From sequence record PZ495249.1: a stretch of 64,000 nt of DNA; one strand, 5' to 3'. The notes beneath the pieces were generated by a model, which had not been told where the DNA came from, did no database searches, and worked only from the letters and a program-made list of their open reading frames with translations. Position 1 is the first letter of the stretch. Each line of letters opens with the position of its first letter. A program made the position numbers and the translations under genes. The DNA is from a phage. This document shows, in pieces, positions 7,140 to 46,510 of this stretch.

Positions 7140-8264
7140 TCACATAATCAGTGACAGGTTTGCACTTCGCGTTGTGCTTGGTTCCAGTACCACACGGAAG
7201 CTGTCGCCTGGTTCATCGCTGTACACCACCAGTTTACCACCTGCAATCAGGTCTGTCTTCCACTTCGTGGCGTTCAGGTGAATGCGTGGATCACCTTCAT
7301 CATCAATGATGACTGCGGAACATTCTTCGAATGCTTCCTGATTGTCCTGCGTTGCCGGACGCAGATAAACATCGAGGGTTTTGATGCCACTCAGGAATGA
7401 CATTGGATTGAATCCATGCCAGTTGCTAACCCAGTTCACTTCTGCCAGTTTACCGTTCACGGTGATATTGCTGATATCCCACTTGGCTTCGCCGCCCAGG
7501 GAAATACCCATCATATCCAGACACGCTTTGAAGGTCATGTCTTTGTAGAAGTTAAGCTCTTCCACGATGCCTTGAATCACATCGAAGGAGAGTTCCAAAC
7601 TCACATCCCACAGACGCTGGAAGCTTGCCTGATGCTCTTTATCATCGAGATTCTTATCCAGATAATCGAGCATTGTCTCCAGGGAGATCTTATCATAGTT
7701 GAAGCTGTAGAAGATACGGCTCGGACGGTTGATAAAGAACTCGGAGATGAAGCCGCTATTCTTGGTCAGAATAAACAGCTTGTTACCACTGCCTGTACCA
7801 TCCAAAAGCGTTAACAGCGCTTCCTGATCCTGTTTCTTCTCGTACACTTTGTCAAACTCATCGAAGATGACAATTGCTTTCTCTGCAATCTTGCTCATCA
7901 GTTCAATGAAATTGGCATCGCTATACGCTTGCGTTACCATAATAACTGGTAAACCCTCTGCTGCCAGTTTACGGCTAATCACCTTAGCCAGCATGGTTTT
8001 ACCGCTACCCTTTGTGCCGGATAAGAGAACACCTGTGTTCTTGCCCTGCTCCGCACGACGCTTGTAGGTAGAGATGATGTGCGATGCACGTTTCTCTGTT
8101 TCACCATACAGGACGCTTGGTACTCCTGTCAAATCCCCACGACTAAGGAAGTAGTTACCCAGTGGATCACGGCTCACTGTCCAGAAACCAGCAGGGAGAG
8201 TTTCGCTCTTGACACCTGCCTCTTTGTCCACTACTGCGATATCACCATAAATTGTGTATGACAC
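7140..8264 (-). CDS. P-loop ATPase (AAA-like), paralog of 24796..25956
   Basis: Walker A GTKGSGKT and Walker B IVIFDEFD; long blocks conserved with the 24796 gene product. Confidence 0.75.
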   Translation of the reverse strand: MSYTIYGDIAVVDKEAGVKSETLPAGFWTVSRDPLGNYFLSRGDLTGVPSVLYGETEKRASHIISTYKRRAEQGKNTGVLLSGTKGSGKTMLAKVISRKLAAEGLPVIMVTQAYSDANFIELMSKIAEKAIVIFDEFDKVYEKKQDQEALLTLLDGTGSGNKLFILTKNSGFISEFFINRPSRIFYSFNYDKISLETMLDYLDKNLDDKEHQASFQRLWDVSLELSFDVIQGIVEELNFYKDMTFKACLDMMGISLGGEAKWDISNITVNGKLAEVNWVSNWHGFNPMSFLSGIKTLDVYLRPATQDNQEAFEECSAVIIDDEGDPRIHLNATKWKTDLIAGGKLVVYSDEPGDSFRVVLEPSTTRSANLSLIM

Positions 8265-15158: not shown

Positions 15159-15183
15159 AAGGGGCGTAAGCCCCTTATTTTAT
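15159..15183 (+). terminator. rho-independent terminator
   Basis: GGGGC-GTAA-GCCCC stem plus T-run. Confidence 0.55.
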
Positions 15184-15193
15184 AGGAGATGTT

Positions 15194-15634
15194 ATGAACC
15201 TGATTGAACTGTTAGGGGGAATTAAATTCCCATCAGATGTTAAATTTGTCAGCCAAGATGAAGATGGTGTGATAAATATGTACCACTCAGATCCTGAGCA
15301 ACGATCTGTCGAGCAATACTGGACATGTAAATTCTTCCTGCAATACTTAGAAGGTGAAGACGGTGAAGATCTCTATCTGCCATTGGCAGATGACTTCCGT
15401 ACTGCACTTCTGACTGTTGTTGATGGTAAAGTGGCAGGTCTTGCTTATGGTTGTGTGAATGCCCCTCCCAAACCAAAAGCTGAGTTCAAAATTCTCTTGT
15501 GTCAGGAAGATTTTGATTATATGATGGATGGCATGGAGGTTGCTGAACTCACGGTAGGCATTGTCAACCAGATCCTGAAAGAGCAGGGTGTAGATATTGT
15601 CTTTGCAGTAGAAGACAGTTCTGACGAAGAATAA
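15194..15634 (+). CDS. acidic hypothetical protein (146 aa)
   Basis: track ORF; TAGGAG RBS. Confidence 0.6.
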   Translation: MNLIELLGGIKFPSDVKFVSQDEDGVINMYHSDPEQRSVEQYWTCKFFLQYLEGEDGEDLYLPLADDFRTALLTVVDGKVAGLAYGCVNAPPKPKAEFKILLCQEDFDYMMDGMEVAELTVGIVNQILKEQGVDIVFAVEDSSDEE

Positions 15635-15651: not shown

Positions 15652-16722
15652 ATGAAAGTAGGCTTAATTTTCGGTAAATTTGCACCACTGACAGCAGGAC
15701 ATGTCAACTTCATCCGTATGGCAGTAGAGTCGGGCATTGATCGTCTGTATTTGTTCCTGTCTTTCGACCAGAAGTTCAACGACACTCAAACTCCGTGGAT
15801 GCAGAAGCGCCTTGGCCTCACACAACGTTTGTGGGATCTCAAGTCTCTTATCGAAGACTCTGGACTCACTCGCAAAGTGATCGTAGACTACGTGGACGAG
15901 TCCAACATTCCTGGCTACCCAGAAGGTGGTAAGGCGTATGCTGAGTTGATTCGTGCTAAGATCCCCGAAGGAGAGGTGTTGACACACGCATTCTCTTCTG
16001 AGCCGGAGTATACTGCCTACTTCTCTGAGTATTTCCCAGAGGTGGAGCATGTTGTGCTGGATGCAGAGCGCAGCGGAGTAGATATTTCTGCTACACGCAT
16101 CCGTACCAACCTGCGGGACAACTTCGAGTATCTTTCCGAGCAAGCTAAACCTCGCTTTGTCAAGCGTGTGGCTATTATCGGTGTAGAAAGCACTGGTAAA
16201 TCCACGATGACCGAGCGTTTAGCTCACCACTACGCAACAACGTCTACGCCTGAGATCGGGCGGGACATTTGCGAAGAGTTATTCTGTGGTAGTGAATTCC
16301 TAATGGATCGTGAAGCGTATCTCAAAGTTGCTATGGCACACCGTATGGAAGAATATATGCACTCCAACGAGGCACACGTTGTCCACATCTCGGACACCAC
16401 CAACTTGATCACGCACTTCTCCGGTATTTGTTCAGGCAAACTGTATCTGAACGACCATATGTTCAGGGCTTTATCTCGTGAAGAAGCTAACACCTTCTAT
16501 GACCTGGTGTTGTTCCTGTCTCCAGAAGTCGAGTGGGTAGAAGATCCTCTGCGACTGCAAAATACGCCACGGAAACGACTTGACACACATAATTTCCTTG
16601 ATATGATGGTGACTGAACATTATGTCGGTCGTGTTCCTGTTGTTCACATCACGGGTACGGACTATGAAGATCGTATCAACCAGGCTATTAAAGCCATTGA
16701 TAAACTTTTAGCGGAGGGTTGA
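15652..16722 (+). CDS. nadR: NadR-like bifunctional NMN adenylyltransferase / ribosylnicotinamide kinase (no HTH domain)
   Basis: N-terminal nucleotidyltransferase motif GKFAPLTAGH; C-terminal P-loop GVESTGKST; AAAGGAG RBS. Confidence 0.8.
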   Translation: MKVGLIFGKFAPLTAGHVNFIRMAVESGIDRLYLFLSFDQKFNDTQTPWMQKRLGLTQRLWDLKSLIEDSGLTRKVIVDYVDESNIPGYPEGGKAYAELIRAKIPEGEVLTHAFSSEPEYTAYFSEYFPEVEHVVLDAERSGVDISATRIRTNLRDNFEYLSEQAKPRFVKRVAIIGVESTGKSTMTERLAHHYATTSTPEIGRDICEELFCGSEFLMDREAYLKVAMAHRMEEYMHSNEAHVVHISDTTNLITHFSGICSGKLYLNDHMFRALSREEANTFYDLVLFLSPEVEWVEDPLRLQNTPRKRLDTHNFLDMMVTEHYVGRVPVVHITGTDYEDRINQAIKAIDKLLAEG

Positions 16723-16724
16723 CA

Positions 16725-16898
16725 ATGTTTGGAAAACGTCTTAAAGTGTTGGCTACAGAACGAGCAGTACCAAAGCTGGAACTGCGTGAATATGAAATCG
16801 TGGTGCGCCACGGCAAAGAATGGATTGTTGACGGGTACGGCGGGTTTGTTCCGGTTAAAGAACTCCACCTTGCTAAGGTGACATTCGAAAGACTCTAA
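16725..16898 (+). CDS. small protein (57 aa)
   Basis: hand-called ORF filling the gap between nadR-like and the next gene. Confidence 0.4.
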   Translation: MFGKRLKVLATERAVPKLELREYEIVVRHGKEWIVDGYGGFVPVKELHLAKVTFERL

Positions 16899-16907
16899 GG
16901 AGGGTTT

Positions 16908-17093
16908 ATGAAAGTTGGAGATGTGTTGCGTTGTACTTACTCCGTGGACAGTGATTTCACGGTAGGAAATCTCTATGAGATCGTGTCTTTTGATAAGGAT
17001 GGTGATCCTATTTTGAGGGATAACGACGATTACACTGGCGGTATCGGTGTTGTCATGAATGGCACTCGTTGGCGTTTCGAGGAGGTTGAATGA
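16908..17093 (+). CDS. small protein (61 aa), tandem paralog A
   Basis: track ORF; shares MK.GD.(L/V)RCT..(S/D)D....G.LY pattern with next gene. Confidence 0.5.
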   Translation: MKVGDVLRCTYSVDSDFTVGNLYEIVSFDKDGDPILRDNDDYTGGIGVVMNGTRWRFEEVE

Positions 17094-17281
17094 AAATCGG
17101 TGATCGTGTAAGATGTACTCGCAGCGATGACTCTGAATTGTATTCGGTGGATACTCTCTATGTGATAGAAGGATTTGGATACGGTGGAATGTTGCTACGT
17201 GATGATAAGGGTGGTCTGGATCGCATTCCTATCCCGATGAAAGGTGCATTCTGGGATTTCGAACCAGTTTTAGAAAACTAA
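17090..17281 (+). CDS. small protein (63 aa), tandem paralog B
   Basis: track ORF; ATGA overlap with paralog A. Confidence 0.5.
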   Translation: MKIGDRVRCTRSDDSELYSVDTLYVIEGFGYGGMLLRDDKGGLDRIPIPMKGAFWDFEPVLEN

Positions 17282-17305
17282 TTTAATCCTAAAGAGGAGA
17301 TGAAC

Positions 17306-17998
17306 ATGAACTTATACGTTAAATCCACCTGGACTGACTTCTACGGCTGGAAACCTTTGGAATATCTTTGGTTGGTTATCTGTACTGCCAGTATCGGTGC
17401 GATCTCTATTGCGATGAACAGTACGCTGGTTGAGTTTATCTCCTCAGTAACAGGGATTGTAGGTGCAATCCTTGTGGCAAAGGGTAAAATTTCAAGCTAC
17501 TGGTGGGGTGTCATTGCTACGGCACTCTACGCATGGATCTCATACAAATACCAACTCTTCGGTGAAGCGATCATGTACACACTCGTGTTCCTCCCGATGC
17601 AGTTCTGGGGTGCAGTGGTGTGGAGTCGAAAGCTGAATGTAAGTGGAGATCGTGCAGATGTTATCAAGAACTACCTGACGACAAAGCAACGCATTTGGGT
17701 GAGCGTCGGTACGCTGGCAGCAATTGGGCTTTATGCCTTGTTCGTAGCCGAACTGAAAGGTAGTATGCCTGGTTTGGATTCTGCAACTGCAATCCTGTCC
17801 ATTCTGGCTACCACACTTATGATGTACCGTTATGCTGAGCAATGGTATGTTTGGGTGTTGGTTAACATCGTGGCAGTGGTCATGTGGATTCAGGCTACAC
17901 TACACCATGAAGGTGGTGGCGCAGCAGTGCTGGCAATGTGGGTAGCATTCCTGCTTAACTCTCTGTTTGGAGTGTACCAATGGCGCAAGCAAAGTTAG
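17306..17998 (+). CDS. pnuC: PnuC-family nicotinamide riboside transporter
   Basis: multi-helix membrane protein with PnuC-like W/Y-rich pattern; AGAGGAG RBS (alternative ATG at 17300). Confidence 0.8.
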   Translation: MNLYVKSTWTDFYGWKPLEYLWLVICTASIGAISIAMNSTLVEFISSVTGIVGAILVAKGKISSYWWGVIATALYAWISYKYQLFGEAIMYTLVFLPMQFWGAVVWSRKLNVSGDRADVIKNYLTTKQRIWVSVGTLAAIGLYALFVAELKGSMPGLDSATAILSILATTLMMYRYAEQWYVWVLVNIVAVVMWIQATLHHEGGGAAVLAMWVAFLLNSLFGVYQWRKQS

Positions 17999-18137
17999 TG
18001 AAATACTCCCTGTACGGGAGAATGGGTTGGGACAGTGAGCCAGTTTGTCTGCACACAAATCTTAGCGCGGTACAAGTGGCTCTTAAAATAGAACATTACC
18101 TCGCCACCTGGCGACATGTTGAAGTGAGGAGAGAATT

Positions 18138-18494
18138 ATGAGTTATCAAGAAGCATTAGAAGCAACAGGTGCGGAAGTGCTGGACTACCAGGAATTTGGT
18201 AGCTATCAGGGCGAATGGTTGGCTCTTGTACGAGTTAATGGTGTTCTCGGTGTAGCTGAGGGTTCCTACGGCTCCTGCTCTGGTTGTGACTCGTTTGAGG
18301 CAGAATTTGGTTGGGGTGATCGTGATGCTGACGACTACCAGGAGCGACTCGCTGATTTCGGCAATGGTTATCTTCCGGCTTGGTCGTTCAATGAATTAAT
18401 CTCTCGCCTGGAGTACCAGGTGGAGGAGTATTCATGGGGTGATTACGAAGAAATGTTGGAGAAAGTTAAGGCTTGGAAAGAAGCCTACGAGTAA
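18138..18494 (+). CDS. acidic hypothetical protein (118 aa)
   Basis: track ORF; GAGGAGAG RBS; strongly Asp/Glu-rich. Confidence 0.6.
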   Translation: MSYQEALEATGAEVLDYQEFGSYQGEWLALVRVNGVLGVAEGSYGSCSGCDSFEAEFGWGDRDADDYQERLADFGNGYLPAWSFNELISRLEYQVEEYSWGDYEEMLEKVKAWKEAYE

Positions 18495-24728: not shown

Positions 24729-24795
24729 GAGTTGATTTTCACAGGGGAGGTTGATATACTTCCCCTACACTTTAAAGAGAAAGAAGGAGAAATAC

Positions 24796-25956
24796 ATGTT
24801 CACACAATTCGGTAGCCAAATCTTCCTGCGTCAGAAATCCGGTGTTGATATCGACGTAATTCCAGCGGGTACTTATGGTATCGGCGTTACAATGGAAGGT
24901 GCGTTTTATCTGTACCCTAAAAACGATATGGAAGTGCCAGCCGTAACCTACGGCGACACAGATGACAAGTCCGAACGTATCATCAAGACGTTCCTGAGCC
25001 GTGATGGTAAGAACACTGGTGTTCTCCTGGAAGGTACTAAAGGCAGTGGTAAAACCCTGCAAGCGAAAATGCTGTCAGTGGCACTGCGTAAACAGGGCAT
25101 CCCTACCATCTCCATCGGTAGCCCGTTCAACGGTGAAGCGTTCATCAACTTCATGTCGAAAATCAAACAGCCGATCATGGTGATGGTGGATGAATTCGAT
25201 AAGCTTTATGCTGAGAAAGAACACCAGGACGGTCTGCTTACTCTGCTGGATGGTGTCGGTGGTTACAACAAACTGTTCGTTCTGACCAAAAACGATGGTT
25301 ATGTTTCTGAATTCCTGCGCAACCGACCAAGCCGTATCTTCTATAGCTTTAGCTATAAGAAACTGCCTAAGTCTACGCTGGATGATTACCTGGATAAAAA
25401 CCTGGTAAACAAAGCGTTCGTTGCAGACTTCGAAACTCTGTACAACCTGTCAGCAGATCTGAACTTCGACGTAATTCAGTCGCTGGTAGAAGAACTGAAC
25501 CGTTACCCTGACGATAAGTTCTCTGATGCGCTGAACCTGATGGGTATTTCGATCAACGAAGGTAGCCGTTCTGCCAAAGAGATTAAAACTCTGAAAGTGA
25601 ATGGTGTAGATCGTCTGCAAGATGTCCGTGGATTCGATCTGTCTGGAATGTCAGCACAGTCCCTGTTCCAGGGCGCTAAGTTCCAGATCAACGTAGACCA
25701 CAAAGAAGGTACTGAACGTCTGCCTAACATGAAAGGTGTTGTTACCCTTGACCAGCAGGACGCTGACGGCGATTGGTACTATGATTGCGACAAGATCTTC
25801 ATCAGCTACGATGAGAAGAGCATTAAGAGCATGGGCGGAGATGGTTATCACTTCGTGTTCGCTCAGGGCGATAACGTCATTGAGATTGAGGTGAAACAGA
25901 AAGAAACCCTCAACTACATGGATTACGCCTTCTCAGGCGCAGGTTACAACTACTAA
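24796..25956 (+). CDS. P-loop ATPase (AAA-like), paralog of 7140..8264
   Basis: track ORF 24751..25956 trimmed to Met with AAGGAGAAA RBS; Walker A GTKGSGKT; Walker B VMVDEFD. Confidence 0.75.
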   Translation: MFTQFGSQIFLRQKSGVDIDVIPAGTYGIGVTMEGAFYLYPKNDMEVPAVTYGDTDDKSERIIKTFLSRDGKNTGVLLEGTKGSGKTLQAKMLSVALRKQGIPTISIGSPFNGEAFINFMSKIKQPIMVMVDEFDKLYAEKEHQDGLLTLLDGVGGYNKLFVLTKNDGYVSEFLRNRPSRIFYSFSYKKLPKSTLDDYLDKNLVNKAFVADFETLYNLSADLNFDVIQSLVEELNRYPDDKFSDALNLMGISINEGSRSAKEIKTLKVNGVDRLQDVRGFDLSGMSAQSLFQGAKFQINVDHKEGTERLPNMKGVVTLDQQDADGDWYYDCDKIFISYDEKSIKSMGGDGYHFVFAQGDNVIEIEVKQKETLNYMDYAFSGAGYNY

Positions 25957-37846: not shown

Positions 37847-38410
37847 ATGATCTTCCACATTACTCCCTATCTTTCTGGTGATATCGGCAAAGGCATCAAC
37901 GATACCATCCGTGAACTGCCGGAAGATAGTTGGATTTGCTTGAGGGATATCGACACGATGTTCCTACTACCAGAACAACCGATGTGGCTTGAAACCCTCG
38001 TCCGTTCTAACCCAGAGTATGATGTTATTGGTGCATCATGCAACCGCTTGGGATCTACTTACCAATTGTTCGGTAACGAAATAAGTGACGATTCAGACAT
38101 ACGCAATCACATAGAAATTGCGAAAGCAGCCCGAACAGCCTGGGGCAATAGCATTGAAGATGTTCCTCTGGGAGTACCACTTGCAGGATTCTTCTTATTA
38201 TTCAGGAAGAGTTTGTGGCAAGAAATTCCATTCGAAGAAAGATCTATTCAATTCGATTTAATCTTCTCTAATACTCTACACGCAGCAGGAAAGCGATTAG
38301 GAATCATGCGAGGAATGTATCTGTTCCATACTTATCGTCTTGGAGCAATCGATCCACGTAGAGCCATTTCGCATCTCATTCACTGCCAGGATATGGAGAA
38401 GGTAATATGA
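37847..38410 (+). CDS. hypothetical protein (187 aa), possible sugar-nucleotide transferase
   Basis: track ORF; CAGGAGGGAGAA RBS; heads a three-gene block with two glycosyltransferase-like paralogs. Confidence 0.55.
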   Translation: MIFHITPYLSGDIGKGINDTIRELPEDSWICLRDIDTMFLLPEQPMWLETLVRSNPEYDVIGASCNRLGSTYQLFGNEISDDSDIRNHIEIAKAARTAWGNSIEDVPLGVPLAGFFLLFRKSLWQEIPFEERSIQFDLIFSNTLHAAGKRLGIMRGMYLFHTYRLGAIDPRRAISHLIHCQDMEKVI

Positions 38411-38436
38411 TTGATAATTTAAGGAGGATGTTAAAC

Positions 38437-39405
38437 ATGCTTGTTCATAAGCCCCGCTTATATTGTGATAACAAGTTAGGGAGTGGGTGCGACTATCACC
38501 GAGTGGTGATGCCTTTTGCTGATAATAAATTCAAACCAAAAGAGAATGTATTGGTGTTCAACCGTATTTATTCTCGTGGTGCAGAAGAGGTTCGCCGTCT
38601 GAAAGAGCGTGGTGTTAAAGTGGTAGTAGATTTAGATGACTTCTATGAACTTAACCCTGAGCATTACCTGGCAAGCGTGTTCACAAGTCACACACAGAAC
38701 ATCATTGACATGGTGAAATTAGCAGATATTGTTATCGTCACCACTGAATATCTGGCTTACAAGGTAAGGCCACTGAATAGAAATGTGGTGGTTATCCGTA
38801 ACGCACTGCCTTTCGACACTGGTCAGTTTACCCTGAGTGAAGATAAAGAGTCAGACACTCCGCTGATATGGGCGGGTGGTGCAAGTCACTATCCTGATCT
38901 ATCTCTTGTCTCGAACAGTTTTGATGATGATTTGTTAACAATTGCCGGATATGAAGAGCACAAGTCTGCTCCTGCTGGTAGTCATCAGCAATTGACAACT
39001 GCCGAGTGGAGAAAAGTCAGACGTAAGCTACCAAATGCACAATACAAACCAGCAGTACATCATTTAGGCGAGTATATGTCGGTGTACGATGGTCATGCCG
39101 TAGCTATTGCTCCCTTGGTTGATAACGACTTCAATGCTTGTAAAAGCAACTTGAAGATCCTGGAGGCAGGAGCTAAGGGACTACCTATCATTTGTTCTAA
39201 GGTGTTACCATATTATAATCCGGTGGATGCTAACGTGGTGTTTTATGCTGAATCCCGCGCAGAATGGCACTACGAGGTGGTGAAACTTCTTCGTAATCCA
39301 AACTACGCAGAGGATCGTGGTTTAATGCTTGCAGAACACGTCAGAACACATTACAATCTTGATGATGCAAATGAATTGCGCCGACAAGTGATCGAAAGTT
39401 TATAA
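38437..39405 (+). CDS. putative GT-B-type glycosyltransferase, paralog 1
   Basis: track ORF 38407..39405 trimmed to Met after AAGGAGG; C-terminal KSNLKILEAGAKGLPIICS motif. Confidence 0.6.
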   Translation: MLVHKPRLYCDNKLGSGCDYHRVVMPFADNKFKPKENVLVFNRIYSRGAEEVRRLKERGVKVVVDLDDFYELNPEHYLASVFTSHTQNIIDMVKLADIVIVTTEYLAYKVRPLNRNVVVIRNALPFDTGQFTLSEDKESDTPLIWAGGASHYPDLSLVSNSFDDDLLTIAGYEEHKSAPAGSHQQLTTAEWRKVRRKLPNAQYKPAVHHLGEYMSVYDGHAVAIAPLVDNDFNACKSNLKILEAGAKGLPIICSKVLPYYNPVDANVVFYAESRAEWHYEVVKLLRNPNYAEDRGLMLAEHVRTHYNLDDANELRRQVIESL

Positions 39406-39413
39406 GGAGTTCT

Positions 39414-40358
39414 ATGCCTAACATTGTGCTTGACACACGCGACGGACATAATTATAGTGTCTGTGATTTCCATAGAATTATCCTTCCATACAAACGAGCG
39501 CTCACCATTAACCCACAACACAATATCTTCGTGTTCAATGGTGTGCCTACTCGTGGGAAGTCAGGATTCCTGGCTCTCAAACAACTTGGTTTCAAAATGG
39601 TTATGGATCTTGATGACTCTCTACATATTCCAGAAGGACATATGCTTGAGGACTTGTTTGATACCCGTATCCGTGATGACCTCAAGTGGTTTTTGGAACG
39701 GAGTGATTTGGTAACAACAACTACTCCTGCTCTCCAGAAAGAACTCTCAGAATATAATGACAACGTGCATATTGTGCCGAATGGTTTGCCTTTCGATGAA
39801 TGGCAATTCACCATAACAAAGGATCGTTATTCTAAGAGTCCACTGGTGTGGGCTGGCAGTGAAACCCATAAACATGACTTGGCAATCCTACCGCCCCTCG
39901 GTAAGATGCTAACACTCTGCGGATTCCGTAGAGACAAAGAAGAGCTAAGTAGCTTGCAATGGATATTGATACGAGAAGATATTCAACCTGATTGTATCTA
40001 TGAAGGTGTCCGACCATACGCCACTTACATGGAATCGTATGACGGTCATCAGGTGAGCATTGCTCCACTTGTGGATAATCCTTTTAATAATGCAAAAAGC
40101 AATCTCAAGATTCTTGAGGCTGGAGCCAAAGGCTTACCGCTGATTTGTTCTCCTCGTGAGAATTATTTCACCGAAGAGTTTAAGGATCTGGTTTACTTTG
40201 CCGATTCATTATCCGAATGGAAAGATCTGGTAGAATACTTAGTAGAGTCTCCAGATATTTGTGTTGAAAAGGGAATGGCCTTAGCCAAATATGTACGTGC
40301 TCAATACAGTATTGACGCATTAAACGAGACTCGTAGATTACTTATTGAGAGGTTGTAA
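39414..40358 (+). CDS. putative GT-B-type glycosyltransferase, paralog 2
   Basis: track ORF; AAGGAG RBS; same C-terminal motif (KSNLKILEAGAKGLPLICS) and overall colinearity with paralog 1. Confidence 0.6.
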   Translation: MPNIVLDTRDGHNYSVCDFHRIILPYKRALTINPQHNIFVFNGVPTRGKSGFLALKQLGFKMVMDLDDSLHIPEGHMLEDLFDTRIRDDLKWFLERSDLVTTTTPALQKELSEYNDNVHIVPNGLPFDEWQFTITKDRYSKSPLVWAGSETHKHDLAILPPLGKMLTLCGFRRDKEELSSLQWILIREDIQPDCIYEGVRPYATYMESYDGHQVSIAPLVDNPFNNAKSNLKILEAGAKGLPLICSPRENYFTEEFKDLVYFADSLSEWKDLVEYLVESPDICVEKGMALAKYVRAQYSIDALNETRRLLIERL

Positions 40359-42778: not shown

Positions 42779-45364
42779 ATGGGAGCATTTACTTTCGACA
42801 TTGAAAGTAACAACTTGCTTAATGATGAGAGTGTGGATTACCTGTCAAGTCCTTATCGACTGAAAGACAGTTTCGAGATGCACTGTATTGTATGCGAGAG
42901 TCATGACACCGGAGAGATTATTGCTTTCCACGATGGAGACAAGTATCACTTCGATGGTCGTCCTTACGTAGAGACTGACGGGAAATACACTTACAGCCTG
43001 TTAGAATACGAACATCAGGATTACACCCATTTTCCAATGAGCGCATTCCGAGACTTCGTTAAAGGCACTGGTGTATTTGCCAACAAACCTCAGTACAAGA
43101 TTACGAAAGTAGTTGGTCATAACATTATCAACTTTGACTTGTTAGCCATTAAACTCTACTTTAAAATGAATTACAGCGTGAAATACAATACTTGGGATAA
43201 TCAGGATGTAGAAATCTGTGATACCATGATCCTGAGTAAAGTGCTGAACCCTGACCGTTTCGGTGGTCATAGCCTGGCGGAATTATCCAGCAAGGCAGGT
43301 GGTGATGTTAAGCTTGACTTCCGTAAAGATATTCCGGTTGAAGATCGATTCAAAACGTTTGCAGCAGACATGCTCTATTACTGTATTTACGATAACAAAT
43401 CGAACACCGCCGTATATAAATATCTGATGGAAGAATGGGGAGACTACGATAAATGGGCGGAACCATTTATTCTTGAACAACGTATTGCTGATATTATCAC
43501 TCGTCAGGAACACCGTGGCTTCGCTTTCAATATGAAACAAGCCGAAGAGAATATAAAAGATCTTGATTCTAAGATGGAAGCGTGTAGACTTGAGGCTGAA
43601 CCTATTCTTCCTCCGAAACCTGCAACGAAAGGTTATCTGAAAGACTTCATTCCGCCTAAACTCCAGTTTAAGAAGAATGGTGATCCAACGAGTAACATTA
43701 CGAAGTTTGCAGCTAAGCATGGTGGTGAACTGGTTGAACGTGAAGATGGATGGTGGTTGATCGCCTTGGATAAGGAAATGAAACTTCCTATCTCCAGTGA
43801 AGAGCCAATCTGTGAACCTACTGTTCCGGCTACACTGAACGACACGACACACATCAAGAACTGGCTGGTAGGATTAGGCTGGAGTCCTTCTGAGTACAAA
43901 GATAAAGACATTACGTTGAAGTCTGGTACTAAGATTAAAAAGGACGAGGCGCAGATGGAGAAAGCGATTCGCGATTACGTGGATCAAACTTTAGCATCAA
44001 ACTTCTGTCAAGATCGTTGTGACCACCTTGAATGTACGCCTGAAACTCTTGAGTGGAAGCTGCGTGACCGTATTGCTAAGGCAAAAGGTAAAGGTGTGAA
44101 GGTATTGACTAACCCATCATTCACCAAGGGGCAGGAGAAAGAGATTTGTCCTAACTTGGCTGAACTGGGTGAGAAGTTCCCGTATGCTACCCAGATCGTG
44201 GAATACCTGACGTACAAACACCGTCGAAACTCTATTCTCGGTGGTGGTGCAGATTGGGAAGATGATGAAGAGGATCAGGAATACAACAAAGGTTATCTTG
44301 CAGCAGTAAGGGCAGACGGGCGTATTCCAACGCCAGCGGCAACGTGTGACGCTGCTACTTCTCGTATGAAACACCGTCTTGTTGCTAACATTCCTCGTGT
44401 AACCTCTCTATACGGTTTCCAGATGCGTAACATGTTTGGTGTAGAGGTTCCGGCATACTTCCAGATTGGTTATGACTTTGACTCACTTGAGGCGAAGATT
44501 GAATCACATTACTGCTGGAGATATGAAGCAGAGCCGCATGAATATTGTAACGCTCTTCTGTTAGAAAAGCCGCACGATGTTCACTCAATGATGGCACGAC
44601 GCATTACAGAAACTATCGGACGTAAGTTTGAACGTGCTCCGGCTAAATCTGTTAAGTATGGTATCACATACGGCGCTCAGGCTGCGAAGGTGGCTAAGAC
44701 AATCGGTAGTGATATGCACACAGGCCAGATGGTTTATGATGCATTCTGGGAAGCTGCAAAGCCTCTCGCATTACTGAAAGAACGTCTGCATGACTTCTGG
44801 GTTAAAACAGGTAAGAAATACATTCTCGGTATCGACGGACGTAAAGTGCCTACCCGTTCTGCTCACGCTATCCTGAACTCACTTTTCCAGAGTGGCGGGG
44901 TAATCTGTGCGAAACGTGCAATGGTGATTTACGACGACCTGATCGAAGAAGAAGGGCTGGCAGTTGACTTCTTTGTTGACGATTGGAAAAACAAATCCTT
45001 CGTGCAGCAAATGATCGCTTACCACGATGAAGCACAACTTGAGGTTACTCGTGACCTGGTTGAGTTCAAATGGTTCTCCAAAGAATCTCTGGGCTGGATT
45101 CAAGTTGAGGATGAGAAAGAGCAGGAACGAATCGACAAAGAATGTATGGCTAAAGTAAATGCGTGGAAAGCTGAGGAAGAAACTCGTACTGGTAAGATCT
45201 GGGCTAACGTACACGAATCTCCGAAAGGTGGTTGGTTTACTGGCTACAGTCGTGCAGGTGAACTGGCATCCATCGCAGTTAAGAAAGCAGGTGAATTCTA
45301 TGGCCTGAACGTAGAACTGACAGCAGGTTATGACTTAGGTAATTCCTGGGCGTCCTGTCACTGA
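42779..45364 (+). CDS. family A DNA polymerase with 3-prime to 5-prime exonuclease domain
   Basis: Exo motif FDIESNNL; polymerase motif B-like KSVKYGITYGAQ; HDEAQ motif C; 861 aa. Confidence 0.85.
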   Translation: MGAFTFDIESNNLLNDESVDYLSSPYRLKDSFEMHCIVCESHDTGEIIAFHDGDKYHFDGRPYVETDGKYTYSLLEYEHQDYTHFPMSAFRDFVKGTGVFANKPQYKITKVVGHNIINFDLLAIKLYFKMNYSVKYNTWDNQDVEICDTMILSKVLNPDRFGGHSLAELSSKAGGDVKLDFRKDIPVEDRFKTFAADMLYYCIYDNKSNTAVYKYLMEEWGDYDKWAEPFILEQRIADIITRQEHRGFAFNMKQAEENIKDLDSKMEACRLEAEPILPPKPATKGYLKDFIPPKLQFKKNGDPTSNITKFAAKHGGELVEREDGWWLIALDKEMKLPISSEEPICEPTVPATLNDTTHIKNWLVGLGWSPSEYKDKDITLKSGTKIKKDEAQMEKAIRDYVDQTLASNFCQDRCDHLECTPETLEWKLRDRIAKAKGKGVKVLTNPSFTKGQEKEICPNLAELGEKFPYATQIVEYLTYKHRRNSILGGGADWEDDEEDQEYNKGYLAAVRADGRIPTPAATCDAATSRMKHRLVANIPRVTSLYGFQMRNMFGVEVPAYFQIGYDFDSLEAKIESHYCWRYEAEPHEYCNALLLEKPHDVHSMMARRITETIGRKFERAPAKSVKYGITYGAQAAKVAKTIGSDMHTGQMVYDAFWEAAKPLALLKERLHDFWVKTGKKYILGIDGRKVPTRSAHAILNSLFQSGGVICAKRAMVIYDDLIEEEGLAVDFFVDDWKNKSFVQQMIAYHDEAQLEVTRDLVEFKWFSKESLGWIQVEDEKEQERIDKECMAKVNAWKAEEETRTGKIWANVHESPKGGWFTGYSRAGELASIAVKKAGEFYGLNVELTAGYDLGNSWASCH

Positions 45365-45402: not shown

Positions 45403-45633
45403 ATGAAATTAGTATTCCAAACAGACGACATTTTCATGTTCACAAAGGATATGGGAACATATACAGGTGGACAGATTATCATCCTGGGAGATAAAAACGG
45501 ATCATCATTTAATATCTTAGGTGACATTCGTAAGGATGGGGAAGAAAAACCTGTGACTGTAACAGGTTCAGAGAGTTGGTTAGAAACTTTATACCAAACT
45601 GGTGTTATCAAATTTATTGGGGAGAAAAAATGA
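45403..45633 (+). CDS. small protein (76 aa), tandem paralog A
   Basis: track ORF; GAGGAGAAAA RBS; C-terminal G.(I/V)K(F/L)(I/L)GE.K shared with next gene. Confidence 0.5.
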   Translation: MKLVFQTDDIFMFTKDMGTYTGGQIIILGDKNGSSFNILGDIRKDGEEKPVTVTGSESWLETLYQTGVIKFIGEKK

Positions 45634-45872
45634 AACTTGTAGAAACAGTAATCACTACCGTAGAATTTGAAGTAGGGGATGTAGTTATGTTCCTGGATGA
45701 AGTTGGCTTTTATAAATTGGGAGATGTAATTGTTCTCCGTAAAGATTCCGAGCCAGAGAGATTCAAAGCTGAGGGTGCAGGGTTTATTGCTGGAGAAGCT
45801 AATGTAACACAGAAATGGCTGCATGATCTTCTGAAAGAAGGTCGAGTGAAACTGTTAGGGGAGTTAAAATAA
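45630..45872 (+). CDS. small protein (80 aa), tandem paralog B
   Basis: track ORF 45576..45872 trimmed to Met after GGGGAGAAAAA. Confidence 0.5.
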   Translation: MKLVETVITTVEFEVGDVVMFLDEVGFYKLGDVIVLRKDSEPERFKAEGAGFIAGEANVTQKWLHDLLKEGRVKLLGELK

Positions 45873-46510
45873 TGGCATTATTCATGACCGTAGATAATCA
45901 AAAGCAAGCAGCATCAGAACTTCTTTCTAAATTGAAGATGGTAGATCCGTTTGCTATGATCGCAGGTGGTGCTCCTCGTGACTGGTACTTTAACACCGTT
46001 GCCAAGGACTTGGACGTATATCTCCGTCTTCCTAACCACAATACCATTGGATTGGTAACTTCCTTGGCTGCAATGGTGGGGATTAAAGATTTCTACCCTA
46101 TCGACAAGATTAAGGAATCAACCTACGCAGAATTACCTAACCTGAAATGGGTGTTTGAAGGTCGTTACAACGGTGTTCAAGTTAATCTGATGGTTATGGA
46201 GAAGGGTGTACGCGAAGAAATTATCAAAGATTTCGACGTGGCTATCTGTCGGGCATGGTTTGATGGGATCGAGTGTCATTACAATGAAGAATTTCAATTC
46301 TGTGTGAAGACTCGTGTTTGCCTGGTTCATGAGAACTACACTGGTAAAGAAGCCCACCTGCGTAAGATGGCTAAACGTTTCCCACAATTCATGTTCTATA
46401 AGAAAGTGGAGATCCCAGAAGAACCGGACGTGAGCTTTGACGCACCTCCAAGCCACGCTAAGGCTGCACCGCTTCCTCGTAAGCTGCCTGATTTCTGTGA
46501 TGAAATTTAA
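45872..46510 (+). CDS. Pol-beta-superfamily nucleotidyltransferase (CCA-adding-enzyme head-domain-like)
   Basis: IAGGAPRDWYF...DLDVYL matches the GG..RD...DxD nucleotidyltransferase signature. Confidence 0.6.
   Translation: MALFMTVDNQKQAASELLSKLKMVDPFAMIAGGAPRDWYFNTVAKDLDVYLRLPNHNTIGLVTSLAAMVGIKDFYPIDKIKESTYAELPNLKWVFEGRYNGVQVNLMVMEKGVREEIIKDFDVAICRAWFDGIECHYNEEFQFCVKTRVCLVHENYTGKEAHLRKMAKRFPQFMFYKKVEIPEEPDVSFDAPPSHAKAAPLPRKLPDFCDEI

Follow-up and report, generated by a model that had tools for sequence, protein, structure and literature searches.

NARP3 is a two-gene pathway for reconstitution of nicotinamide adenine dinucleotide (NAD+), made up of a phage NadR-like protein and PnuC (Bas30_86/87), that defeats NAD+-depleting defences (Sci Adv 2026, PMC13464706). 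The Bas30_86/87 operon is enough by itself to restore NAD+ and the growth of the phage, and the two genes work in heterologous hosts (PMC13464706). Genes of both types also flank the subject of this report, a tandem pair of small open reading frames (ORFs), A and B, in a 64,000-nucleotide (nt) stretch of phage DNA (sequence record PZ495249.1) whose full length is called the window. All lie on one strand in one tight block. The published genes are adjacent and sufficient, whereas in the window a 57-amino-acid (aa) gene, A and B stand between them, and neither A nor B is one of the two defined components. An earlier note on this DNA had placed the pair between nadR-like and pnuC genes, which is correct, with the 57-aa gene lying between nadR and A as well.

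A described group that resembles A and B is DUF7244 (PF23896, SH3 clan), a stand-alone SH3 protein without a tested function, whose gene in T1-like phages lies next to the lysis cassette (PMC13164509). A and B are diverged paralogues. Their family is narrow and confined to phages, and its members are stand-alone, SH3-like barrels of five strands.

A and B and their barrel family

The two ORFs and their Shine-Dalgarno sequences, the latter identified by reading the sequence, are as follows.

16908..17093, + strand: ORF A, 61 aa, a tail-less A-type member of the SH3-like small-barrel family; isoelectric point 4.2, net charge about -7.5
16897..16903, + strand: Shine-Dalgarno sequence AAGGAGG for A, overlapping the stop codon of the 57-aa gene
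17090..17281, + strand: ORF B, 63 aa, a tail-less B-type member of the same family; isoelectric point 4.5, net charge about -4.5
17079..17085, + strand: Shine-Dalgarno sequence GAGGAGG for B, made by the C-terminal codons of A (F-E-E-V-E)

The earlier description of two similar ORFs joined by an ATGA is accurate in its coordinates and in the likeness. A and B are identical at 26 of 61 residues (43%; BLASTP E=6e-11), and their Smith-Waterman score of 98 compares with 24.6 +/- 4.9 for shuffled sequences (z=15; 0/5000 shuffles as high). In DNA they agree at only about 53% of positions (100 of about 190 columns are invariant). The protein similarity is far above chance, so the chance-level result on which the claimed kinship would have failed did not occur. 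No other members of the family were found within the window.

The start codon of B (17090-17092) lies on the TGA of A (17091-17093), giving the ATGA overlap at 17090-17093, and the junction, GAGGAGGTTGAATGAAAATC, is unchanged in the diverged relative L024 (L numbers denote loci, and P numbers proteins). The Shine-Dalgarno sequence inside A together with this overlap suggests that A and B may be translationally coupled. The ribosome-binding site and start context of A are also used by the single occupant of this position in L007 and L008. A frameshift fusion of A and B was considered and dropped, as on reading the junction has no slippery heptamer. Reading of the two sequences made no signal peptide or membrane segment evident.

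A is modelled by AlphaFold2 as a five-stranded SH3-like barrel, with a predicted local distance difference test (pLDDT) score of 96. Foldseek comparison of A with viral models returned small phage proteins that are uncharacterised, a DUF7244 protein among them. Neither A nor B matches the canonical peptide-binding SH3 profiles of Pfam (SH3_1, SH3_2 and SH3_9). With the DUF7244 profile, which has a gathering threshold of 27 bits, A gives no match at E<=1 and B reaches 16.1 bits (E=0.012), below the threshold. The 74-aa paralogues encoded downstream of pnuC in relatives pass it (P0001 with 30.1 bits, P0009 with 32.5 bits), and the profile of the A/B family finds these same proteins at 1.8e-26 and 3.6e-22, respectively. 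By this transitive homology, the A/B family is a distant relative of DUF7244. In fold and size A and B also correspond to DUF7244, as stand-alone SH3-like phage barrels of about 60-75 aa.

A search of 5.8 billion proteins with the family profile, which was built from A, B and the copies in relatives, yielded just 61 clusters, and the long contigs on which these occur measure about 135-155 kb. When 1.84 billion representatives were searched exhaustively with a profile, 334 matches reached E<=0.001. Among them are many small proteins that stand alone, and others have 2-4 clear tandem copies of the barrel per chain. Single-chain relatives with several barrels include P0063 (2.5 barrels) and P0085, P0095 and P0105 (2 each), while P0062, P0064 and P0069 have 4 matched stretches each in one chain. 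Long repetitive, adhesin-like matches were not taken as family members, since they are probably artefacts of summed weak repeats. Scans of IMG/VR with A, B and the family alignment gave pattern matches and no confirmed relatives, and searches of NCBIfam, PADLOC and PDB sequences gave nothing usable for A, B or a tailed orthologue.

The ORFs are very short and have no annotated function, which could be taken to mean that their similarity is accidental or that they are not genes. This is a practically negligible prospect given the alignment statistics, the 61 homologous clusters, two protein sequences that are unchanged in another phage locus (L011), the confident model of A and the strong Shine-Dalgarno sequences. 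With such a signal before each, the ATGA overlap and the selection pattern described below, A and B are real genes that have the look of being expressed.

Occupants of the slot in related phages

The position between the 57-aa gene and pnuC is a slot whose content differs among relatives.

KP13-26: slot empty, pnuC present
KP2025 and L007: a B-type gene with a tail (103-104 aa)
L008-L010: an A-type gene with a tail (98 aa)
FBKp34 and L023: an A-type gene alone (61 aa), with an ATGA overlap with the pnuC start
FKP3: a B-type gene alone, pnuC absent
Citrobacter phage Tr1: a 280-aa fusion
Window, L011 and L024: A then B, both tail-less

A-type and B-type genes are alternative occupants of this slot in relatives, where they are usually single and carry a 38-aa, two-helix C-terminal tail. 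Extra paralogues of 74-78 aa directly follow nadR, and others of 72-74 aa follow pnuC. The comparison of copy number in related phages, which the earlier note had proposed, shows a slot with no copy, one, two or a fused form, and 1-3 copies per locus. The 57-aa gene precedes the slot in KP13-26, KP2025, FKP3, L007, L008, L011, L024 and Tr1, with 89-100% aa identity.

The tail-less A-B cassette is present in at least three phage lineages, that of the window and at least two others. L024 has the order 57-aa gene, A-type, B-type, pnuC, and its cassette has the junction and 3' end of those in the window and L011. In FBKp34 it is the start of pnuC that is overlapped by the A-type C-terminus (GAGGAGGTAAAATGA) which precedes B in the window.

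The Tr1 fusion protein, WNL63397.1 (280 aa; OR515479.1, 40722..41564; L016/L017), is encoded in one frame after the 57-aa gene. It is made up of a homologue of a 53-aa gene, two full barrels and one truncated barrel, and a helical tail; nadR and pnuC are both absent from this locus. The 53-aa ORF of the window matches the N-terminus of the fusion (BLASTP E=1e-5). This ORF (17980..18141) shares 19 nt with the 3' end of pnuC and has a KP13-26 counterpart with 91% aa identity.

FKP3 has at the nadR position a gene annotated as "RNA ligase" (668 aa, L003:776-2782). The C-terminal domain of its product is an AAA_28 domain of the NadR type, so that the annotation looks doubtful. It had been considered as support for an anti-defence island, and was dropped for that purpose because this C-terminus is NadR-type.

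Origin of the A-B tandem

A neighbour-joining tree of the barrel domain assigns A and B to two deep clades that are separated by other subtypes. The nearest relatives of A are P0010 (95%), P0021 (87%), P0030 and P0043 (69-70%) and P0036 of FBKp34 (66%), and that of B is P0004 (92%, alignment A6). The earlier note saw in the pair a recent tandem duplication in place, in which one small gene was copied and the copies diverged fast. The two genes are adjacent, on one strand and of equal length, with a common N-terminal motif and an ATGA overlap, all of which would fit such an event. It is nevertheless very improbable, as protein identity of 43% and DNA identity of about 53% are low for it, the clades are separate and deep, and each copy has closer orthologues elsewhere that stand alone in the same slot. 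The tandem is also kept in the diverged L024 lineage, with both members under purifying selection. Recent duplicates would be each other's closest relatives with high DNA identity, and A and B are not; the word "recent" has to be given up.

The window and L011 encode identical A and B proteins despite 8 differing codons in A and 3 in B. For B the differences are 3 synonymous and 0 nonsynonymous. For A the Nei-Gojobori ratio of nonsynonymous to synonymous change (omega) is 0.03, a value in which path-averaging counts one TTG/CTT leucine codon as nonsynonymous. The comparison with L024 gives omega values of 0.42 (A) and 0.20 (B). These values indicate that the coding sequences of A and B are under purifying selection. 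The earlier view of the pair as rapidly evolving accessory genes is correct as to their accessory nature, the slot content being variable among relatives, and not as to the coding sequences. The rapid evolution is therefore a turnover of slot content and an exchange of alleles, rather than fast sequence change.

Identities along the locus are mosaic. Window and L011 proteins are 100% identical for the 57-aa gene, A and B, with 88% for NadR and 92% for PnuC; compared with L007, NadR has 96%, PnuC 98% and B 89%. L024 has 87% protein identity to the window in A and only 71% in B. Synonymous divergence (dS) for this one genome pair is 0.12 in the 57-aa gene, 0.21 in A and 1.08 in B, so that B exceeds the other two five- to nine-fold. 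The flanking nadR and pnuC genes have a history that differs from that of the cassette.

Because of the mosaic identities and the dS values, we infer that the tandem arose by an ancient recombination that placed two slot alleles side by side, and not by a recent duplication in place. The cassette would since have moved between phage backbones as a unit, and the cassette and its parts would have been exchanged by recombination. It has to be set against this origin that recombination is read from the mosaic identities and not from a formal breakpoint test, and that only a handful of A-B cassettes were found, two of the three on metagenomic contigs.

The tail varies among relatives as well. The first 60 codons of B have 94% DNA identity to the tailed gene of L007, and the 114-nt tail is missing in the window. 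The tail-less B ending in "PVLEN" is an established variant, since L024 has it too. The same tail variant is found on differing barrels, the A-type P0030 and the B-type P0007, and barrel and tail are therefore shuffled as modules.

Possible role of A and B

The reading preferred here, with moderate confidence, is of A and B as small modules of the cytoplasm that bind proteins and work together as a split two-barrel array, expressed with NARP3 and unneeded for its chemistry. A and B would be co-translated with the counter-defence operon, and as small acidic cytoplasmic modules they may bind a host or phage protein. They would act jointly, as a split counterpart to the multi-barrel fusions of relatives. 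They would probably not be obligatory for the chemistry of NAD+ salvage, because two genes suffice for NARP3, members of the family occur without pnuC, and the interval genes of Vequintavirinae are unrelated.

The distribution of the family bears on this last point. Members occur in three phages that lack pnuC (FKP3, Tr1 and Geezett). Those of Stephanstirmvirinae-like loci are placed after nadR, before pnuC or after pnuC. The Vequintavirinae phages PVP-SE1, KB57, 4MG and AV124 have no family member near their nadR and pnuC genes, and unrelated small genes fill the interval between the two; an association of the family with pnuC as a general rule was rejected on account of these four phages. 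Another phage of the Vequintavirinae, SSE121, has one family copy directly upstream of pnuC.

Several points weigh against the proposed role. No experiment or characterised homologue stands behind any binding partner, and the SH3-like fold is generic, so that "protein-binding module" is close to a default reading. The only argument for joint action of A and B is that of fusion and adjacency. The recurrent place beside pnuC, with the overlap in FBKp34 and L023 and the upstream copy in SSE121, also exceeds what would be predicted for a passive hitch-hiker.

That recurrent place is what would be expected if A and B were accessory subunits of NARP3. FeoA is a small SH3-like cytoplasmic partner of the FeoB transporter. 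A and B could in a FeoA-like manner dock on PnuC, on the NadR-like enzyme or on both, and couple or regulate the import and phosphorylation of nicotinamide riboside. Members stand in or beside the nadR-pnuC pair in nearly all of the Stephanstirmvirinae-like loci examined, FBKp34 and L023 have an ATGA overlap between the A-type gene and the start of pnuC, and the SSE121 copy directly upstream of pnuC belongs to another subfamily of phages. Even so, this main rival appears rather unlikely. In structural comparison FeoA fares no better than unrelated SH3 barrels, which match by the dozen, and the FeoA profile of Pfam matches neither ORF. FKP3, Tr1 and Geezett have members without pnuC, KP13-26 has pnuC with the slot empty, and PVP-SE1, KB57, 4MG and AV124 have nadR and pnuC without a member nearby. 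Moreover, two genes suffice in heterologous hosts (PMC13464706). Protein-binding modules that are dispensable for NARP3 chemistry remain the preferred reading.

The tail of the relatives and a link to antitoxins

The tail that ends most single-copy orthologues is conserved over 38 aa, with the consensus DExxQTxALIKLLExSQxDVxxGRVMTREQLLExLxKD. P0004, the tailed 103-aa orthologue in L007, is modelled as a barrel and two packed helices (pLDDT 91). No tail-like ORF was found anywhere in the 64-kb window, where A and B end right after the barrel. P0215 (48 aa, L034:2501-2647) consists of the tail alone, so the tail exists also as a separate small protein; its gene follows SprT-like and TelA genes in a different phage-like context.

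A metagenome scan for the tail used the alignment of tailed orthologues and was seeded on the tail motif and the barrel-to-tail junction. It gave 4 matches to the tail region alone, 3 of which are at the extreme C-terminus of small ORFs. These 3 ORFs, from unrelated loci (L030:339-951, L031:375-859 and L032:2872-3404), are directly upstream of ParE/RelE-type toxin genes. The ParE_toxin scores of the three neighbours are 54.9, 40.7 and 17 bits against a gathering threshold of 23, which two of the three pass. The motif common to the tail and the C-termini of the ORFs is xDVAAGRVMTxEE...L (ADVAAGRVMTxEE...L in the three loci).

Phage orphan antitoxins are an established means of counter-defence, for example against DarTG (PMC11257639; 10.1101/2023.12.14.571748). 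It is conceivable that the family consists of phage orphan-antitoxin mimics, each a barrel with a toxin-binding tail, which act against host ParE/RelE-type abortive-infection toxins. A and B would then be derived forms that work differently or keep the barrel's share. The conservation of the two-helix tail in most single-copy orthologues, the occurrence of its motif just upstream of ParE-type toxin genes and the adjacency of the locus to the counter-defence module NARP3 are consistent with this. As an account of A and B it is decidedly improbable. Both are tail-less and so have no C-terminal segment of the toxin-neutralising kind, the tail being a feature of orthologues only. The similarity is short (24-42 residues) and comes from a scan seeded on the motif itself. 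When the tail profile was run against 5.8 billion proteins, matches outside the family appeared only at E>=0.6, which is not significant, and a search of PDB sequences gave spurious matches only. Antitoxin and defence profiles of Pfam, NCBIfam and PADLOC had no match for A, B or the tailed P0004. The likeness of the tail to antitoxins may serve as a lead to the ancestral role of the family, and is no finding about A and B.

A wider conjecture, speculative and distinctly unlikely, would place the barrel family beside NARP3 in an anti-defence island, as a class of phage counter-defence proteins not described before. Its tailed single-copy forms would be orphan-antitoxin mimics against ParE/RelE-type toxins, the tail-less A-B pair would use its two barrels to bind a protein of host immunity or one related to NAD+, and the swapping of slot alleles would be the footprint of an arms race. 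The preferred reading of A and B as a split pair of protein-binding barrels does not extend this far.

The operon and its neighbourhood

The tight block of + strand genes begins after a terminator-like hairpin at 15159..15176 and contains the following features besides A and B.

15194..15634, + strand: 146-aa ORF from the ORF list, upstream of the NadR-like gene
15652..16722, + strand: NadR-like nicotinamide mononucleotide (NMN) adenylyltransferase / ribosylnicotinamide kinase, the first NARP3-type gene (AAA_28 4.9e-20; CTP_transf_like 0.007; phrog_3462 6e-112)
16580..16607, + strand: sigma-70-like promoter match TTGACA-16-TATGAT with TG (11/12 match), inside the 3' end of nadR and upstream of the 57-aa gene, A, B and pnuC
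16725..16898, + strand: 57-aa companion gene, directly upstream of the slot (phrog_10388, E=1.4e-18, function unknown)
17306..17998, + strand: PnuC-like nicotinamide riboside transporter, the second NARP3 gene (NMN_transporter 9.1e-39; phrog_1880 9.7e-69)
Downstream of pnuC: small ORFs, DUF7296 and DUF4326

E. coli NadR is about 410 aa long. Because the NadR-like protein of the window is shorter, at 356 aa, it probably lacks the helix-turn-helix domain, like Bas30_86. The pnuC ORF opens at 17300, and its Shine-Dalgarno sequence GAGGAG (17294-17299) abuts the ATG there. The ATG at 17306 is the likelier start, since it gives GAGGAG a proper spacing and matches the start in relatives (the L011 call is 230 aa). 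The promoter-like motif at 16580..16607 is kept in L007 and L008 (as TATAAT in L008). Promoter-like sites across the region are in no excess over shuffled sequences, and conservation of this one may reflect coding constraint alone.

The closest isolates to the window are Klebsiella and Citrobacter phages of Stephanstirmvirinae, with about 80% identity over the A-B locus. The DNA polymerase gene (42779..45364) has about 79% DNA identity to the nearest isolates (Tr1, KP13-26 and Phapecoctavirus-type coliphages). Because both values are this low, the window phage is an uncultured member of Stephanstirmvirinae, probably new at the genus level. No tRNA genes were found in the 64-kb window.

Other paralogues in the window

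The earlier note also pointed to a similar duplicate pair further along the window.

45403..45633 and 45630..45872: second tandem pair, 76 and 80 aa long and overlapping by ATGA, flanked by the DNA polymerase gene and a 212-aa gene

These two are indeed true paralogues, with 27% identity (BLASTP E=3e-8; shuffle z=11). Their similarity to A and B is one of arrangement, and a relationship between the pairs was rejected (z<1.5, hhalign probability 0.2%), which places them in a different family. That family has 9 clusters only and no match among isolated phages; in relatives the 76-aa gene stands by itself (L018-L021) or is accompanied by the second gene (L022). The variable-slot pattern is therefore repeated at this second pair.

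For the adjoining 212-aa gene (45872..46510), a link to the anti-Gabija protein Gad2 was dropped: the "weak" precomputed Pfam match occurs in the relatives L018-L022 only, and the window's own protein has no Pfam match at E<=0.01.

Two further sets of paralogues were seen. A third tandem pair (38407..39405 and 39414..40358) encodes glycosyltransferase-like proteins of 332 and 314 aa, with 37% identity over 323 aa (E=4e-71). The dispersed genes 24751..25956 (+ strand) and 7140..8264 (- strand) encode AAA/STAND-like ATPases with 44% identity over 308 aa (E=1e-78).

Significance and comparison with known systems

Taken by itself, the A-B pair is an ordinary case of old paralogous phage accessory genes of unknown function. 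Its value comes from its setting, wedged inside the recently described counter-defence pair for NAD+ reconstitution, in a slot where related phages of Klebsiella, Citrobacter and Enterobacter type swap alleles and tails and differ in copy number. Should the barrels bind host immunity proteins or tune the uptake of nicotinamide riboside, NARP3 would be extended or a new anti-defence family added, which would be relevant for the engineering of therapeutic Klebsiella phages. Otherwise, the locus would be a clean example of tandem small phage genes that arise by juxtaposition of alleles and not by fresh duplication.

Among known systems, type II and orphan antitoxins are resembled by the tailed relatives only. 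The motif of the tail is like C-termini encoded upstream of ParE toxins, and a cognate toxin is absent next door, as expected of orphan antitoxins. A and B differ in being without the tail, the similarity of which is short and not significant database-wide. Classical antitoxins have DNA-binding N-terminal domains of the ribbon-helix-helix, Phd/YefM or AbrB types, whereas the N-terminal domain of this family is an SH3-like barrel.

A and B differ from FeoA in having no sequence relationship to it and a structural score like that of unrelated SH3 domains, and their family persists without the transporter in several phages.

Like DUF7244, the A/B family consists of phage-restricted, stand-alone, SH3-like barrels of 57-75 aa with function unknown. 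A and B are encoded in an NAD+-salvage operon of a myovirus-type genome of about 150 kb, and not in a Drexlerviridae lysis cassette. Their family is multi-copy, with 1-3 members per locus, and has tailed and fused multi-barrel forms. Phage and bacterial proteins with multiple small-barrel repeats, like those of DUF6501 and DUF7244, are also related in that the same profile matches 2-4 barrels per chain, while the barrels of the window are separate polypeptides.

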